From a virus (lineage: Duplodnaviria; Heunggongvirae; Uroviricota; Caudoviricetes): a DNA stretch of 4,648 bases. The notes below the pieces were generated by a model. That model ran no database searches and was not told the DNA's origin. It worked only from the letters and a program-made list of their open reading frames with translations. The stretch's first letter is position 1; each line of letters opens with the position of its first letter. The translations under genes and the position numbers were made by a program. The stretch is taken from positions 1 through 4,648 of IMG/VR virus record IMGVR_UViG_2645727715_000001, one strand, 5' to 3'. Positions 1 to 4,648 of this stretch are shown here, piece after piece.

Positions 1-303
1 CTACTGGATGAACGGGAAAGGAACCAGCAATACATCAAATCCCGCGACCAGGAGAACGAGGATATTGCGCTAACGGTAGGGAAGTTGCGCGTTGAGCTTG
101 AGGCAGAAAAACAGCGGGCAAAGGATCTGTTTATGGAAAATGCTCGGCTTAAGTCAGGTATAGCCGGTCTGATACACCTCGGTATTCGATATGCAGATGT
201 TGATGTCATGAAAATTGCTGGAGATGCCCAGCTTTCTACCCCATGCACTGACAGCATCATAAACAGCATTGCAACAGGCATTCGCATCAACGGAGGTGAG
301 TAG
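1..303 (+). CDS. 5-prime-truncated ORF continuing upstream of the window; hypothetical prophage protein, C-terminal ~100 aa with a charged helical stretch (LRVELEAEKQRAKDLFMENARLKS)
   Basis: Frame 1 is open from base 1 with no stop until TAG 301-303; the tool ORF 85-303 is only its TTG-initiated tail. Same strand and orientation as all downstream genes. Confidence 0.55.
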   Translation, partial: LLDERERNQQYIKSRDQENEDIALTVGKLRVELEAEKQRAKDLFMENARLKSGIAGLIHLGIRYADVDVMKIAGDAQLSTPCTDSIINSIATGIRINGGE

Positions 304-479
304 TGCGTGTGGCATGTATTGGCTTGTTACCGTACCCGACTCGTTTTTGGGCTTCTGCGCTAATTGCAAAGCCACAGGTCCTGATGGCTGACAACATCAC
401 CCCAGCACCAAAGCGCCGCCATACCGGTATTGCAGCGGCACGACGAGCAGCAAAGAGACGCAGGAGAGCAAAGCGATGA
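303..479 (+). CDS. Possible small ORF (58 aa, GTG start) with hydrophobic N-terminus and strongly Arg/Lys-rich C-terminus (AARRAAKRRRRAKR); below the 60-aa cut-off of the ORF track
   Basis: GTG at 303 overlaps the upstream stop (taGTG) and lies 6 nt after GGAGG (292-296); frame 3 is open to TGA 477-479, which overlaps the ATG of the next gene (ATGA). It fills an otherwise unusual 172-nt gap in a coupled operon. Alternative ATG at 384. Confidence 0.3.
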   Translation: MRVACIGLLPYPTRFWASALIAKPQVLMADNITPAPKRRHTGIAAARRAAKRRRRAKR

Positions 480-664
480 AAAACCGTAAAGCAAAGATTC
501 TGTTAGTTCGTAGAAACGCTCCTGGCGTCTGGCAGTGGGTGAGACTCAGCAACCGACGGATGGGGTTAATGAAACATTACGGGATGATGGATTGTTGGTT
601 TTGCAAAAAGCCCAGCGCGGCGCAAAACCGCTGGAAAAACCACTTGCGCACTAAAGGAGAGTGA
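476..664 (+). CDS. Small very basic protein, 62 aa (16 Lys/Arg vs 2 Asp/Glu); possible nucleic-acid-binding protein, function unknown
   Basis: ATG 476 preceded by AGGAG (462-466) at 9-nt spacing; stop TGA 662-664 followed 1 nt later by ATG 666 of the next gene. Confidence 0.55.
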   Translation: MKNRKAKILLVRRNAPGVWQWVRLSNRRMGLMKHYGMMDCWFCKKPSAAQNRWKNHLRTKGE

Positions 665-670
665 TATGGC
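653..670 (+). repeat. 18-bp gene-junction repeat AAAGGAGAGTGATATGGC, copy 1 (stop of ORF 476-664, RBS and start of ORF 666-1181)
   Basis: Exact identity with 1553-1570, read directly from sequence; both upstream proteins end in KGE. Confidence 0.9.
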
Positions 671-1181
671 GTTAACACACCGCGAACTCTGTCAGATTGC
701 GTACAAGTTCCTTAAGCGCAACGGGTTCAAGGTTTGTTTTCATGACCGCTTTATAGCTGTAACCAGTACCGGAGAACAGCCAGATGCTATGGGATTCAGA
801 AATTCAGCATCATGCCTGATAGAGGCGAAATGTTCTCGTGCTGACTTGTTGGCAGATAGAAAAAAGCGTTTTCGTAAAAATCCGTCTCTTGGAATGGGCG
901 ACTGGCGATTCTTTATTAGTGAGCCGGGAATTATTTCAATTGAGGATTTACCACCTGGCTGGGGATTACTTCACGTTGTTAACGGAAGAGTACGGAAAGT
1001 ACATGGGTGGCCCAAGGGTAATTGCTGTTGGGGTAATCCTGACGATAAGCCATTTACTGGAAATAAGCAGGTTGAATGCGATTACATGTTATCTGCATTA
1101 AGGCGTATGGAGTTGAGAGGGCACCTTAATGAAATATATGACGGTGTAATTGTTAATAAGAAAGAAGGAAACGCGGCATGA
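666..1181 (+). CDS. Putative PD-(D/E)xK-fold nuclease-like protein, 171 aa, with Cys/Trp-rich C-terminal region (GNCCWGNPDD...ECDY)
   Basis: ATG 666 with AGGAG 6 nt upstream. N-terminal region shows E7, P39-D40 followed by hydrophobic residues, then hydrophobic-IEAK (E53-x-K55) followed by a basic helix (RADLLADRKKRFRK), the classic spacing of a PD-(D/E)xK core. Stop overlaps next start (ATGA at 1178-1181). Fold assignment is motif-based only. Confidence 0.7.
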   Translation: MALTHRELCQIAYKFLKRNGFKVCFHDRFIAVTSTGEQPDAMGFRNSASCLIEAKCSRADLLADRKKRFRKNPSLGMGDWRFFISEPGIISIEDLPPGWGLLHVVNGRVRKVHGWPKGNCCWGNPDDKPFTGNKQVECDYMLSALRRMELRGHLNEIYDGVIVNKKEGNAA

Positions 1182-1564
1182 TCACTATTACCAAAGAGCG
1201 ACTGCTGACAATCAAGCAGTGGCGCGAAACATACGGACCTGGTAGCAACGTTGTACTGCCAGCAGAAGAAGCGGAAGAACTGGCACGGATTGCGCTGGCA
1301 TCGCTGGAAGCAAAACCAATAGGTGCTTTCCACATTGCAGAACAGCAGGTCGATGGCACAAGTGACTACATCAAGGATGGGGAGTGGCCTATTGATAATG
1401 GAATTATTGAGGTCTACGCCGCTCCACCCGTTCCAGTAGTACCGGAAGAAAAACCAATGCCTAATCCTCTTAGCATGTACGCGGTTGATGCTGTTGCCGC
1501 TATTGCAGAGGTGAGAGGCTGGAACGCCTGCCGCGCTGCAATGCTTCAGGGAAAAGGAGAGTGA
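1178..1564 (+). CDS. Hypothetical phage protein, 128 aa; paralog of the N-terminal half of the downstream 315-aa protein
   Basis: ATG 1178 overlapping upstream stop; GAAGGA 1164-1169 as RBS. Shares MxTITxE start, ELARI(A/V)LASLEA(K/E)P and (V/L)Y(A/T)(A/T)PP(V/A)P motifs with ORF 1772-2719, including a 34/35-nt identical DNA stretch. Confidence 0.75.
   Translation: MITITKERLLTIKQWRETYGPGSNVVLPAEEAEELARIALASLEAKPIGAFHIAEQQVDGTSDYIKDGEWPIDNGIIEVYAAPPVPVVPEEKPMPNPLSMYAVDAVAAIAEVRGWNACRAAMLQGKGE
1277..1311 (+). repeat. 35-bp in-frame repeat, copy 1 (GAACTGGCACGGATTGCGCTGGCATCGCTGGAAGC)
   Basis: 34/35 identity with 1937-1971; encodes ELARIALASLEA. Confidence 0.9.
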
Positions 1565-1570
1565 TATGGC
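1553..1570 (+). repeat. 18-bp gene-junction repeat AAAGGAGAGTGATATGGC, copy 2 (stop of ORF 1178-1564, RBS and start of ORF 1566-1775)
   Basis: Exact identity with 653-670. Confidence 0.9.
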
Positions 1571-1775
1571 TATTGCCGCAAGTTACACAATGCATCTCTA
1601 TTGTGACTGCCGCCAGTGTACGGAAGGTGTATATCCAGTGCCAGACTTCGGTGAGTATATAGGTACGTCATGGGCTGGCTGTGCAAAAGAGGCGCGCAAG
1701 GATGGCTGGCGAATAAAGCAAAGACAAACGCGTGCTTTTGCGCCTGGGCATAAAGTTTTGAGGATTAACAAATGA
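1566..1775 (+). CDS. Small Cys-rich protein, 69 aa (C13-x-C15-x2-C18 ... C39); possible zinc-ribbon-like protein
   Basis: ATG 1566 preceded by the same AAAGGAGAGTGAT junction as gene 666-1181; stop TGA 1773-1775 overlaps ATG 1772 of the next gene. Confidence 0.6.
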   Translation: MAIAASYTMHLYCDCRQCTEGVYPVPDFGEYIGTSWAGCAKEARKDGWRIKQRQTRAFAPGHKVLRINK

Positions 1776-2719
1776 CCACTATTACCAGAGAACAAGCTCT
1801 GAAAATTATTGAGGCAGCCGATGAGGTTATTAGTGCGCTGGCCGGAACTAACGAGGATGTTCACCCTGGTAGCGATAACATGCTACGCCTGTGGGATGAC
1901 CTGAATGACCGTTACGCGCCGCCGGAAATTGTGCGTGAACTGGCACGGATTGTGCTGGCATCGCTGGAAGCCGAGCCTGTTCTGTATCAGTCCTGCACTC
2001 GCCCCACCTGGAATAGCGGTGTTCCGTGGACGGAATGGAAAGAACGAAGTCGTGAGTGCTACGAAGACGATTTGCGCTTTACAGACACGCCTGACCATGC
2101 CGGTTGGATATACAAATGTCGAAAACTATATACCACTCCGCCAGCGCCGATAGCGTTAGAGGCCATTGAAAACGCAATTGAATACATCCGCAGTATCGCT
2201 TTTCACATCGATGAAGACGATTACCACGGCAAACATATTGCGTATTTCATGCAGCAAGCATTGGCCTGGCTGGAAGGGCATTCATGCAGCGACGACAGAC
2301 TGGGTAAAGCCGAGAATCAACCAGTACGCGGCAACCAGGCTGCCGAATCCAATCGCGATAATGAGTGGACTGGCAATCCTGATATTGATAACGCCATCAT
2401 CATGCTCGACCGCATAGATACGCTGGAAAATTGCGATGATGACCGTATTGAGGCTGTTAAGGCTGTTTTGCGTAGACTGGCTGGCAACTATCCGGTAATT
2501 CCGGATGGTTGGATAAGCTGTAGTGAGCGAATGCCTGAGAACATTCCCGGAAGTTGTAAAGAGTATCTGGTGTTTGATGGGCTTAATAATAAAGTTCATC
2601 ACGATTACTGGGTTGTCCCTGATGGAGACAGTGCGCCAGTTGCGTCGTTCTGGAATCATTACGGGGCACATGTAACTCACTGGATGCCTCTACCAGAACC
2701 GCCGCAGGAGGCGAAATGA
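1772..2719 (+). CDS. Phage protein, 315 aa, with C-terminal DUF551-like domain (family recalled from memory) and N-terminal module shared with ORF 1178-1564
   Basis: ATG 1772 with GAGGA 7 nt upstream. C-terminus IPDGWISCSERMPE...KEYLVFDG...HHDYWVV...FWNHYGAHVTHWMPLPEPP matches my recollection of the DUF551 pattern found in enterobacterial prophage proteins. Longest ORF in the window. Confidence 0.85.
   Translation: MTTITREQALKIIEAADEVISALAGTNEDVHPGSDNMLRLWDDLNDRYAPPEIVRELARIVLASLEAEPVLYQSCTRPTWNSGVPWTEWKERSRECYEDDLRFTDTPDHAGWIYKCRKLYTTPPAPIALEAIENAIEYIRSIAFHIDEDDYHGKHIAYFMQQALAWLEGHSCSDDRLGKAENQPVRGNQAAESNRDNEWTGNPDIDNAIIMLDRIDTLENCDDDRIEAVKAVLRRLAGNYPVIPDGWISCSERMPENIPGSCKEYLVFDGLNNKVHHDYWVVPDGDSAPVASFWNHYGAHVTHWMPLPEPPQEAK
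1937..1971 (+). repeat. 35-bp in-frame repeat, copy 2 (GAACTGGCACGGATTGTGCTGGCATCGCTGGAAGC)
   Basis: 34/35 identity with 1277-1311; encodes ELARIVLASLEA. Confidence 0.9.
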
Positions 2720-2976
2720 TGGATGTAAAAGAGAAGGTTTTGCAGGTGATGCGTTCCCGGGCTGCCCTGCAAGATAAAGCTCTCGGCGGGAAATATCCAT
2801 TCAGGATGGCAACCTGGAATCTGCGGTTGGCAATGGAGAAGGAATTTCCTGATGAAGAATGGCGTTCGGCAGATTTGCGCAAAATTCTTATGGAGATGGC
2901 TAAAGATGGAACAGTATCCAAAGATACCCATGCCAGCCGGATTGGTCAGGCGGTATGGAGACTGGAGGTGAGGTAA
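2716..2976 (+). CDS. Hypothetical small phage protein, 86 aa
   Basis: ATG 2716 overlaps upstream stop (ATGA) with strong AGGAGG (2705-2710) at 5-nt spacing; stop TAA 2974-2976. Confidence 0.65.
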   Translation: MMDVKEKVLQVMRSRAALQDKALGGKYPFRMATWNLRLAMEKEFPDEEWRSADLRKILMEMAKDGTVSKDTHASRIGQAVWRLEVR

Positions 2977-3050
2977 TAAGCTGGCCTGAAGCATTTGCGA
3001 TTGTAGGCGTAGCTATGGCGATTGCCGCTATTTTTATCTTCTGGGGGTAA
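2955..3050 (+). CDS. Candidate unannotated mini-ORF, 31 aa, single predicted transmembrane helix (METGGEVISWPEAFAIVGVAMAIAAIFIFWG)
   Basis: Frame 3 ATG 2955 to TAA 3048-3050. It exactly fills the only untranslated gap between 2976 and 3053, and its stop sits 2 nt before the ATG of the next gene. No good SD for ATG 2955; GGAGGTGAG at 2964-2972 is downstream of it. Speculative. Confidence 0.25.
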   Translation: METGGEVISWPEAFAIVGVAMAIAAIFIFWG

Positions 3051-3052
3051 CG

Positions 3053-3268
3053 ATGGGAAAATTAACTTTTGTAGTCGAATTTGAGGATGGCAAAGAGCCA
3101 CCTGTTAGCGCCAATCTTGATGTTGCTGGTGGCAGGCTGGTTTCGGTTCTATTTGGTGATTACCGCGACGACTTCTTTCAGCCTGAAGAAGTTGATGTAG
3201 TGCGAGAAGCATTAAACGAGCTAAGTGTTGATAACGATGATGCTCATGCGGAAATCATCAAAAAATGA
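3053..3268 (+). CDS. Small strongly acidic protein, 71 aa (17 Asp/Glu vs 7 Lys/Arg); candidate DNA-mimic or anti-defence-type protein (hypothesis only)
   Basis: ATG 3053 preceded by GGGGGT; residue composition counted directly from the translation; stop TGA 3266-3268. Confidence 0.65.
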   Translation: MGKLTFVVEFEDGKEPPVSANLDVAGGRLVSVLFGDYRDDFFQPEEVDVVREALNELSVDNDDAHAEIIKK

Positions 3269-3332
3269 ACTGACTACTCACTAAATTATCAATTATGGTG
3301 CTATCACCTACGACACCGAGAGAAAATTTATA

Positions 3333-3455
3333 ATGTCAAAAGTAAATGTTTTGATTTTTTCAGCAATTGTTGGCTTTGGTTTTACTGCCGGAGTGCAGAT
3401 TTATATTACGTGGGAAAAAATCATCAACTACGAATGGAGTTGTTTTATTAAGTGA
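3333..3455 (+). CDS. Candidate small membrane peptide, 40 aa (MSKVNVLIFSAIVGFGFTAGVQIYITWEKIINYEWSCFIK), one hydrophobic helix
   Basis: Frame 3 ATG 3333 to TGA 3453-3455 in the AT-rich segment. Ends 7 nt before ATG 3463, and its 3-prime end contains the GAGGT that would serve as RBS for the next gene. It competes with the TTG-initiated N-terminal extension of tool ORF 3367-3756. Confidence 0.35.
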   Translation: MSKVNVLIFSAIVGFGFTAGVQIYITWEKIINYEWSCFIK

Positions 3456-3462
3456 GGTAAGT

Positions 3463-3756
3463 ATGTGGAGAGGTAATAATCATGGCAAAAGCCAGATGAT
3501 ACTTACCGAATATAAGCTAGACCACAAAACCAATAAATCACGCTCAGTATATTTGCTCCGGCACAATAGCCGCGTAAGAAATACCGTGCTGGAACAAAAT
3601 CTGACAGTTGAAATGGATAATTGCGGGGGATTCAAGCCAACAATTTCGCTTGATGATTTTCCTCGTGGTTTAAGCGAAAGAGAAGCAATGCTGAAATTAG
3701 CAGAATGGCTACAAAGATTAAGCATTGCTATTGAAGATAACTGGTCTGAACCTTAA
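3463..3756 (+). CDS. Hypothetical protein, 97 aa if started at ATG 3463 (tool call 3367-3756 uses an upstream TTG)
   Basis: Frame 1 ORF ending TAA 3754-3756; ATG 3463 has GAGGT (3454-3458) upstream, though at short spacing; alternative in-frame ATG at 3496. Followed by a perfect hairpin-forming palindrome at 3789-3805. Confidence 0.5.
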   Translation: MWRGNNHGKSQMILTEYKLDHKTNKSRSVYLLRHNSRVRNTVLEQNLTVEMDNCGGFKPTISLDDFPRGLSEREAMLKLAEWLQRLSIAIEDNWSEP

Positions 3757-3788
3757 ATTTATATGATGACACTAAAACATTTTCTTGA

Positions 3789-3805
3789 CCGCCCATTATG
3801 GGCGG
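3789..3805. repeat. Perfect 17-bp palindrome CCGCCCA-TTA-TGGGCGG (7-bp GC-rich stem, 3-nt loop); possible RNA hairpin or dimeric-protein binding site
   Basis: Read directly; located 33 nt downstream of stop 3756; a TTGACC hexamer (3785-3790) abuts it. No U-tract follows on either strand. Confidence 0.6.
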
Positions 3806-3990
3806 CAGCCGCAGGCTATGACTTTAATTATATGGATTGCATGTCTTGTACTGCCAATGCATACGACCATTCGTTCATCCTGCTGTTTAATTCTTTAAGA
3901 ATATTGCCGGAAACAGTATTTCTTAGGTGATGGAATGACTGATATTGCCAAAATGAACATTGAAGAATGGACTAAGGAATGTGAAAAGAA

Positions 3991-4146
3991 ATGGCGCAAA
4001 AAGAAATGACCAGAATCACTGAAGAGCGCATATCAGAGATTATTTCCCGTATCGAAATGTATGGTCACGGTGCTGGATATACGGCAGATGAAGTATTGGA
4101 AATAGCCCAGCAGATGCTGGCCTTGAGACAAAAAAGAGCAACATGA
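3991..4146 (+). CDS. Possible short ORF, 51 aa (MAQKEMTRITEERISEIISRIEMYGHGAGYTADEVLEIAQQMLALRQKRAT); may be a fragment of a disrupted gene
   Basis: Frame 1 ATG 3991 to TGA 4144-4146. It is overlapped by a 24-codon ORF (3935-4009, frame 2, good AGGTGA RBS) and followed by a frame 2 ORF, so the region looks frame-broken. Confidence 0.3.
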   Translation: MAQKEMTRITEERISEIISRIEMYGHGAGYTADEVLEIAQQMLALRQKRAT

Positions 4147-4162
4147 AAGCAATACGTGTAGA

Positions 4163-4552
4163 TTGAATTTTGAGCAGTGGCTGGAACAGCAACGCGGGAA
4201 AATCGATGTGGACTGTGGTTGTGTGTCCACTGAAACATTCATGCACTGGCTGCGGGTAGCTTACGAGGCTGGCAACTATCCGGATATTCCGGATAGTTCG
4301 GCGCAAGCACCAGGGAAGGGGGGGCTTCCCCGGAGAGCGGATTCGAATTAAGCCGCATGTTTACCGTGAACTGGTTAACCGCCTCCACGATACAGCGATC
4401 AAGTGTGCTGGCACCCAGCAATTACGGGAAAGAATTAGCCGCGTTTTTGGCGAAGTTATTACACCAGATCGTCATAAACAAGCCGAGAAAAGCGGTCTGG
4501 AAAGGAGTCATCTTGAAGCGGCATTAAACATTAAACCGGGCAGTACGCTAGT
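4163..4552 (+). pseudogene. Frame-disrupted or mis-sequenced gene: frame 2 ORF (4163-4351, TTG start) continues without any start codon in frame 3 from 4260 to the end of reliable sequence
   Basis: Frame 3 is open from 4260 onward but has no ATG/GTG/TTG; the frame 2 to frame 3 switch coincides with a G7 run (4318-4324). Deleting one G would join the two into one ORF (...APGKGGFPGERIRIKPHVYRELVNRLHDTAIKC...). Confidence 0.35.
4276..4296. repeat. 21-bp inverted repeat CTATCCGGA-TAT-TCCGGATAG (9-bp arms); also a direct repeat of TCCGGATA
   Basis: Read directly; lies inside ORF 4163-4351, encoding YPDIPDS. Confidence 0.5.
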
Positions 4553-4648
4553 GGGGAAAAATTTTTCCCCGGGAAAAAAATTTTTGGGGTTTTTAAAAAA
4601 ACCCCAAAAAAAGGGGCCCCCTTTTAAAAAACCCCGGGTTTTAAAAAA
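4553..4648. other. Low-complexity homopolymer-stutter tract (GGGG AAAAA TTTTT CCCC GGG AAAAAAA ...), most likely sequencing or assembly artefact at a contig/read end rather than genomic sequence
   Basis: Every base occurs in runs of 3-7, cycling through all four nucleotides for about 96 bp to the end of the window; nothing like this occurs in the preceding 4.5 kb. Confidence 0.7.

Follow-up and report, generated by a model that had tools for sequence, protein, structure and literature searches.

Reading frames broken at the end of a P1-like phage-plasmid contig: very probably Ion Torrent homopolymer miscalls in an accessory gene

Judged by its sequence, the stretch of DNA analysed here (the window, 4648 nt) is a 4.6 kb contig that belongs to a P1-like phage-plasmid of E. 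coli and comes from its variable accessory region. In a plasmid similarity search it matched P1-like phage-plasmids of E. coli, Shigella and Salmonella, and the neighbouring genes in these relatives are the ones that P1 has upstream of the DNA polymerase III theta-like gene hot and of humD, phd, doc and pacA. A fragment of an Ead/Ea22-like gene and a DUF551 gene are also carried in the window. The locus corresponds to the pmgT/pmgU/pmgV region of P1-like phage-plasmids and lies upstream of hot-humD-phd-doc. This region is one of eight stretches of high variability in P1-like phage-plasmids (PMC9603915), and both pmgT and pmgU were non-essential in a CRISPRi screen of P1 (PMC10695390). The locus itself is an unremarkable representative of this known variable region. 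The initial annotation had spoken of a prophage gene; the element, with its pmgT/pmgU ... hot-humD-phd-doc context, is a P1-like phage-plasmid and not an integrated prophage.

The features at the 3' end of the window are collected in Table 1. Three successive ORFs (3935-4009, 3991-4146 and 4163-4351) in frames 2, 1 and 2, followed by an open frame 3 from 4260, had been described in the initial annotation and were all present as described. They had been taken for one or two genes interrupted by frameshifts. A single gene accounts for 3991-4552; the first ORF is not part of it and represents the C-terminal remnant of the gene upstream.

Table 1. Features at the 3' end of the window (positions refer to the window)
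Feature	Position	Strand	Remarks
N-terminal 55-codon remnant of a 124-aa gene (WP_000988655.1, phrog_2638, predicted membrane protein)	3763..3930	+	Deletion-shifted frame ends the ORF early
Deletion junction, 128 bp, CCGGAAA direct repeats	3907..3915		Repeats CCGGAAAC...CCGGAAAA
Stranded out-of-frame C-terminal tail of the 124-aa gene, 24 aa	3935-4009	+	Frame 2; W619 protein ends ...GDGMTDIAKMNIEKWTKECEKKWRKKK
Accessory gene (WP_000057454.1), first ~186 of 207 codons	3991..4552	+	Read in frames 1, 2, 3; contig end cuts the gene
ORF, 51 aa	3991-4146	+	Frame 1
A6 run, probable overcall of A5	4130..4135		Frame 1 to 2; alignment to relatives
ORF, 62 aa, TTG start	4163-4351	+	Frame 2
Frame 3, open stretch	4260 to window end	+	Reading-frame listing
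Conserved 32-nt linker, AGNYPDIPDS, joining N-terminal and PmgU-like modules	4267..4298	+	91% identical copy at 2479-2510, DUF551 gene
G7 run, probable overcall of G6	4318..4324		Frame 2 to 3; alignment to relatives
T5G2 versus T4G3 in relatives (T overcall and G undercall)	4444..4450		Apparent L152F
Deteriorating base calls	4537..4552		GGGGCAT read GGGCAGT (4537-4543); AGGT read AGT
Non-biological tail, 20 homopolymer blocks of 3-7 nt, 96 bases	4553..4648	+	Collapsed = GATCGATGTACAGCTACGTA

The upstream gene is intact in plasmid W619 (375 bp, L002:1564-1938), where it lies directly upstream of the gene for the 207-aa protein; the 19-nt overlap of ORF 3935-4009 with the start of the latter gene is as in this intact arrangement. 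With the 128 bp that the window lacks, the upstream gene has lost its hydrophobic central part, exactly between the two CCGGAAA repeats. The same junction was found in TUM13773, TUM9975, J6 and KD0845, each of which matched in a single piece, and in CP088789, CP088846 and CP090076. Since the deletion is common to at least seven complete plasmids, it was regarded as a genuine, inherited allele. It resembles known pseudogenes of plasmid accessory regions formed by deletion at microhomologies or repeats, both in the loss of a segment between direct repeats and in the presence of the allele in several independent complete plasmids. This deletion is the only genuine gene decay in 3935-4552 and is unrelated to the homopolymer breaks farther downstream. 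The remnant that it leaves behind is unannotated in RefSeq.

In every close relative the equivalent of the region from 3991 onward is a single intact 624-bp ORF coding for 207 aa, in place of the short separate ORFs that the initial annotation had envisaged in homologues of a truly divided gene. The 624-bp coding sequence is WP_000057454.1 in two RefSeq relatives, and two GenBank relatives have a coding sequence of that length in the corresponding position. When the window was repaired conceptually by taking out a single A (at 4130) and a single G (at 4318), the reading became continuous, and over residues 1-186 all but two (184 of 186) were those of the intact homologue; the two mismatches trace to further miscalls at 4444-4450 and 4537-4543. 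The reading frame does switch at the A-run and at the G-run, as had been proposed, and the 207-aa gene contains two breaks, not three. The position given previously for the G7 run (4318-4324) was exact, and that of the A-run (4129-4134) was one base too far to the left. The gene is most probably intact in the source organism, where its product would be an accessory protein that is non-essential, associated with the C1 operon and PmgU-like in its C-terminal domain.

The 207-aa protein is composed of an N-terminal module (~105 aa), an AGNYPDIPD linker and the PmgU-like C-terminal domain. In a BLASTP search its C-terminal ~100 aa showed 88% identity to P1 PmgU (YP_006562.1) over 99 aa (E = 3e-63), and in a PHROGs profile search residues 92-206 matched phrog_21459 (E = 1.5e-68). 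Apart from P1 PmgU, the family and protein searches matched nothing but PHROGs of unknown function. Sequence searches of Pfam, NCBIfam and the PDB with the 207-aa protein returned nothing above threshold (sub-threshold noise only), and PmgT gave no match to it in the protein frame. The designation 'putative morphogenetic' (Pmg) is an annotation label only.

The comparison with P1 concerns both sequence and layout. The PmgU-like module is shared with P1 in its sequence and in its position upstream of hot-humD-phd-doc. The arrangements differ in that the 207-aa protein fuses this module, in frame and through AGNYPDIPD, to a different N-terminal module of ~105 aa, whereas in P1 PmgU is a separate 111-aa ORF that has a GTG start and shares part of its length with the 3' end of pmgT, which is in another frame. 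In the P1 record (NC_005856, L007 1807-2876) pmgT extends ~196 nt over the start of pmgU in the alternative frame. The linker, as AGNYP(V/D)IPD, is also present just upstream of pmgU in P1 (L007 about 2497-2540), where it (GYEAGNYPDIPDSS) is read in the pmgU frame, its start coming one codon after a stop. The linker has the look of a conserved joint for the exchange of N- and C-terminal modules. The pair pmgT/pmgU in P1 may represent the relatives' fused gene in out-of-frame form, or else the 3' end annotated for pmgT may be spurious.

The two runs at which the frame changes were then compared among records. A5 was present in 46 of 46 fetched loci, and in 43 of these an ORF of 199-229 aa runs through the A-run site; the three exceptions are the PSS-08-1 copy, marked as frameshifted by PGAP, and two loci in which no start motif was found. 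The A6 version had an exact match in none of 60 plasmid records, and an exact-pattern scan of GTDB genomes for the A6 allele found nothing. For the G-run a 90-nt off-centre query was used. None of the plasmid records (303) or E. coli records (315) matched G7 exactly, and all IMG/VR and metagenome matches had G6. From these comparisons the true template would have A5 and G6.

G6 was found in all records with the allele except PSS-08-1, which is one variant of unknown sequencing quality. In that record (NZ_AP027678.1, plasmid pPSS-08-1_2, complete; L006 431-1055) G8 replaces G6C, a +1 change. The G8 may reflect an assembly error, the error-proneness of another platform or real instability of the tract in vivo. 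If the last of these applied more widely, the linker G-run (G6 in relatives, G7 in the window and G8 in PSS-08-1) would be a hypermutable on/off tract, and only the A-run and the tail would be artefactual. An accessory gene of a phage-plasmid would then be switched, with the window as its 'off' variant; we consider this highly improbable.

Another reading invokes recoding or phase variation: the runs would be sites of transcriptional slippage or of programmed +1 frameshifting, or the G-run would serve as an on/off contingency tract. A run of 6-8 G within a coding region, its length differing between the window and PSS-08-1, would suit such a device, as would the overlap of pmgT and pmgU in different frames around the homologous linker in P1. 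Two successive +1 events would nevertheless be required, and, with a single exception among the records, the homologues carry A5 and G6 and keep one frame across both sites; no frameshift is conserved. Efficient transcriptional slippage is known from tracts longer than A6 or G7. Recoding and phase variation are further opposed by the finding that most relatives, P1 included, are without any G-run at the site. Recoding or phase variation of either kind is, in our estimate, exceedingly improbable. Programmed -1 frameshifting at the A-run was considered separately and ruled out, because restoration of the frame needs +1 and the homologues are in frame.

The differences between the window and its nearest relatives point to sequencing error. 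The nearest relatives (CP088789, CP088846 and CP090076) come from different isolates and are mutually identical in this stretch. Positions 1-4551 of the window match them at 99.7%, with 15 differing alignment columns, every one of which is an indel, a local swap or a shift of a run boundary. Homopolymer compression removed 12 of the 15 differences; the remaining three are single bases present or absent, and there were no substitutions. The differences are concentrated toward the contig end: six of the 15 columns fall in the last 423 of 4552 nt (binomial P = 0.0015), and full breakdown begins at 4553. Two of the miscalls, at 4448 and 4537-4550, lie nearer the contig end than the breaks at the A-run and G-run. 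Compensating pairs separated by a few bases were observed at 596/598, 1715/1725 and 3273/3275, the first two being +A/-A pairs; such pairs indicate over- and undercalls in flow space and not evolutionary divergence. Run-length errors of the same type also occur in unrelated ORFs and in non-coding DNA of the contig, which argues against recoding or phase variation.

The end of the window had been described as an obvious homopolymer artefact, and this proved to be real: positions 4553-4648 consist of homopolymer blocks only. When collapsed, the tail reads as flows 19-32 followed by flows 1-6 of TACGTACGTCTGAGCATCGATCGATGTACAGC, which we take to be the Ion Torrent Samba flow order; the agreement extends over 20 consecutive flows and would arise by chance with a probability of ~7e-9. 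The tail did not match the reverse complement of this flow order or the simple TACG and TCAG cycles. No similarity to it was found in the relatives, and no exact-pattern match in IMG/VR or the JGI metagenomes. The string TACGTACGTCTGAGCATCGATCGATGTACAGC is given as an Ion Torrent flow order in bioRxiv 10.1101/201442, and the Samba cycle has a period of 32 flows (PMC3623719). A tail that spells the flow order implies that a plus-strand read ends here with multi-base calls for each flow, and the contig probably derives from Ion Torrent data. Two other sources of the tail were rejected: the broad peaks at the end of Sanger reads, which are called as repeated bases, because the order of the blocks is exactly that of the Ion Torrent flow cycle, and a simple 454 cycle, because the TACG and TCAG cycles do not fit.

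Known Ion Torrent errors agree with these observations in two respects. The differences in the window are over- and undercalls of run length together with calls of single flows as present or absent, rising toward the 3' end, and its terminal 96 nt are consecutive flows of the 32-flow Samba cycle with multi-base calls. The raw indel error of Ion Torrent is 1.6-4.7%, above that of quality-trimmed reads, and low-quality 3' read ends are trimmed (PMC3623719). The present case differs in that a tail positive in every flow, normally removed by quality trimming, was kept in the contig, and in that the platform was deduced from the sequence itself.

We therefore consider it very probable that the broken frames at 3991-4552 are Ion Torrent homopolymer miscalls and not a decayed gene. 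Flow-based Ion Torrent reads of low effective coverage would have gone into the assembly, and the contig's 3' end would rest on a plus-strand read whose own degrading 3' end had not been trimmed. Run-length errors are to be expected just upstream of such a read end. As the flow signal is proportional to homopolymer length, the typical error would be a run that is one base too long or too short. A5 would have been called A6 and G6 called G7, each overcall shifting the intact 207-codon gene into the next frame. Nearer the end the calls would worsen (T4G3 to T5G2 and GGGGCAT to GGGCAGT), and from 4553 the base-caller would report several bases for each consecutive flow, writing out the flow order of the instrument. 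The true sequence would read CCGGGGCATACGCTAGGTGTCATTGATGCC... and continue to a stop 207 codons after 3991.

The initial annotation had left the choice between a pseudogene and homopolymer indels. Indels are strongly supported for 3991-4552, and real decay was found only in a different gene and by deletion. A genuine pseudogene would have gained a real extra base (+1) in each of the two runs by replication slippage, tolerated because the gene is dispensable. Homopolymers are natural hot spots of slippage and PSS-08-1 has its +1 change at the same G-run, but A6 and G7 were absent from all relatives examined. Inactivation could be tolerated given the hypervariability of the region (PMC9603915) and the dispensability of the P1 counterpart pmgU (PMC10695390), and the adjoining upstream gene has truly been disrupted by its deletion; the window nevertheless shows no substitutions relative to the nearest relatives, against ~15 homopolymer-type differences including compensating pairs. 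These differences moreover intensify toward a tail in which the Ion Torrent flow order is written out, and the repaired protein equals its homologue except at two positions, both of which result from further miscalls. We regard a genuine pseudogene as very unlikely.

If the broken frames are Ion Torrent miscalls, the uncorrected errors and the junk tail would make pseudogene calls, protein predictions and variants derived from this contig spurious. The last ~500 bases would be affected especially, with further errors at 596-598, 1715-1725, 3259-3275 and 3433. From the sequence alone, the tail points to the chemistry used and indicates that an untrimmed read end entered the assembly. The approach is reusable as a diagnostic of artefacts in public assemblies: terminal homopolymer blocks are collapsed and compared with the Ion Torrent flow order, and a homopolymer-compressed comparison with relatives is then made.

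Several other ORFs of the window are altered by errors of flow type. ORF 476-664 carries G41W from the error at 596-598, and four residues of ORF 1566-1775 are altered by the +A/-A pair at 1715/1725. ORF 3053-3268 has lost its last six residues, through A7 being read as A6 together with further errors (3259-3275). A flow-type error is also present at 3433.

Farther upstream, the adjacent genes 1178-1564 and 1772-2719 (the latter being the DUF551 gene) contain near-identical 35-nt segments at 1277-1311 and 1937-1971, coding for ELARI(A/V)LASLEA, and have similar starts, M(I/T)TITxE, at 1178-1212 and 1772-1806. The shared segments suggest duplicated or shuffled N-terminal modules.
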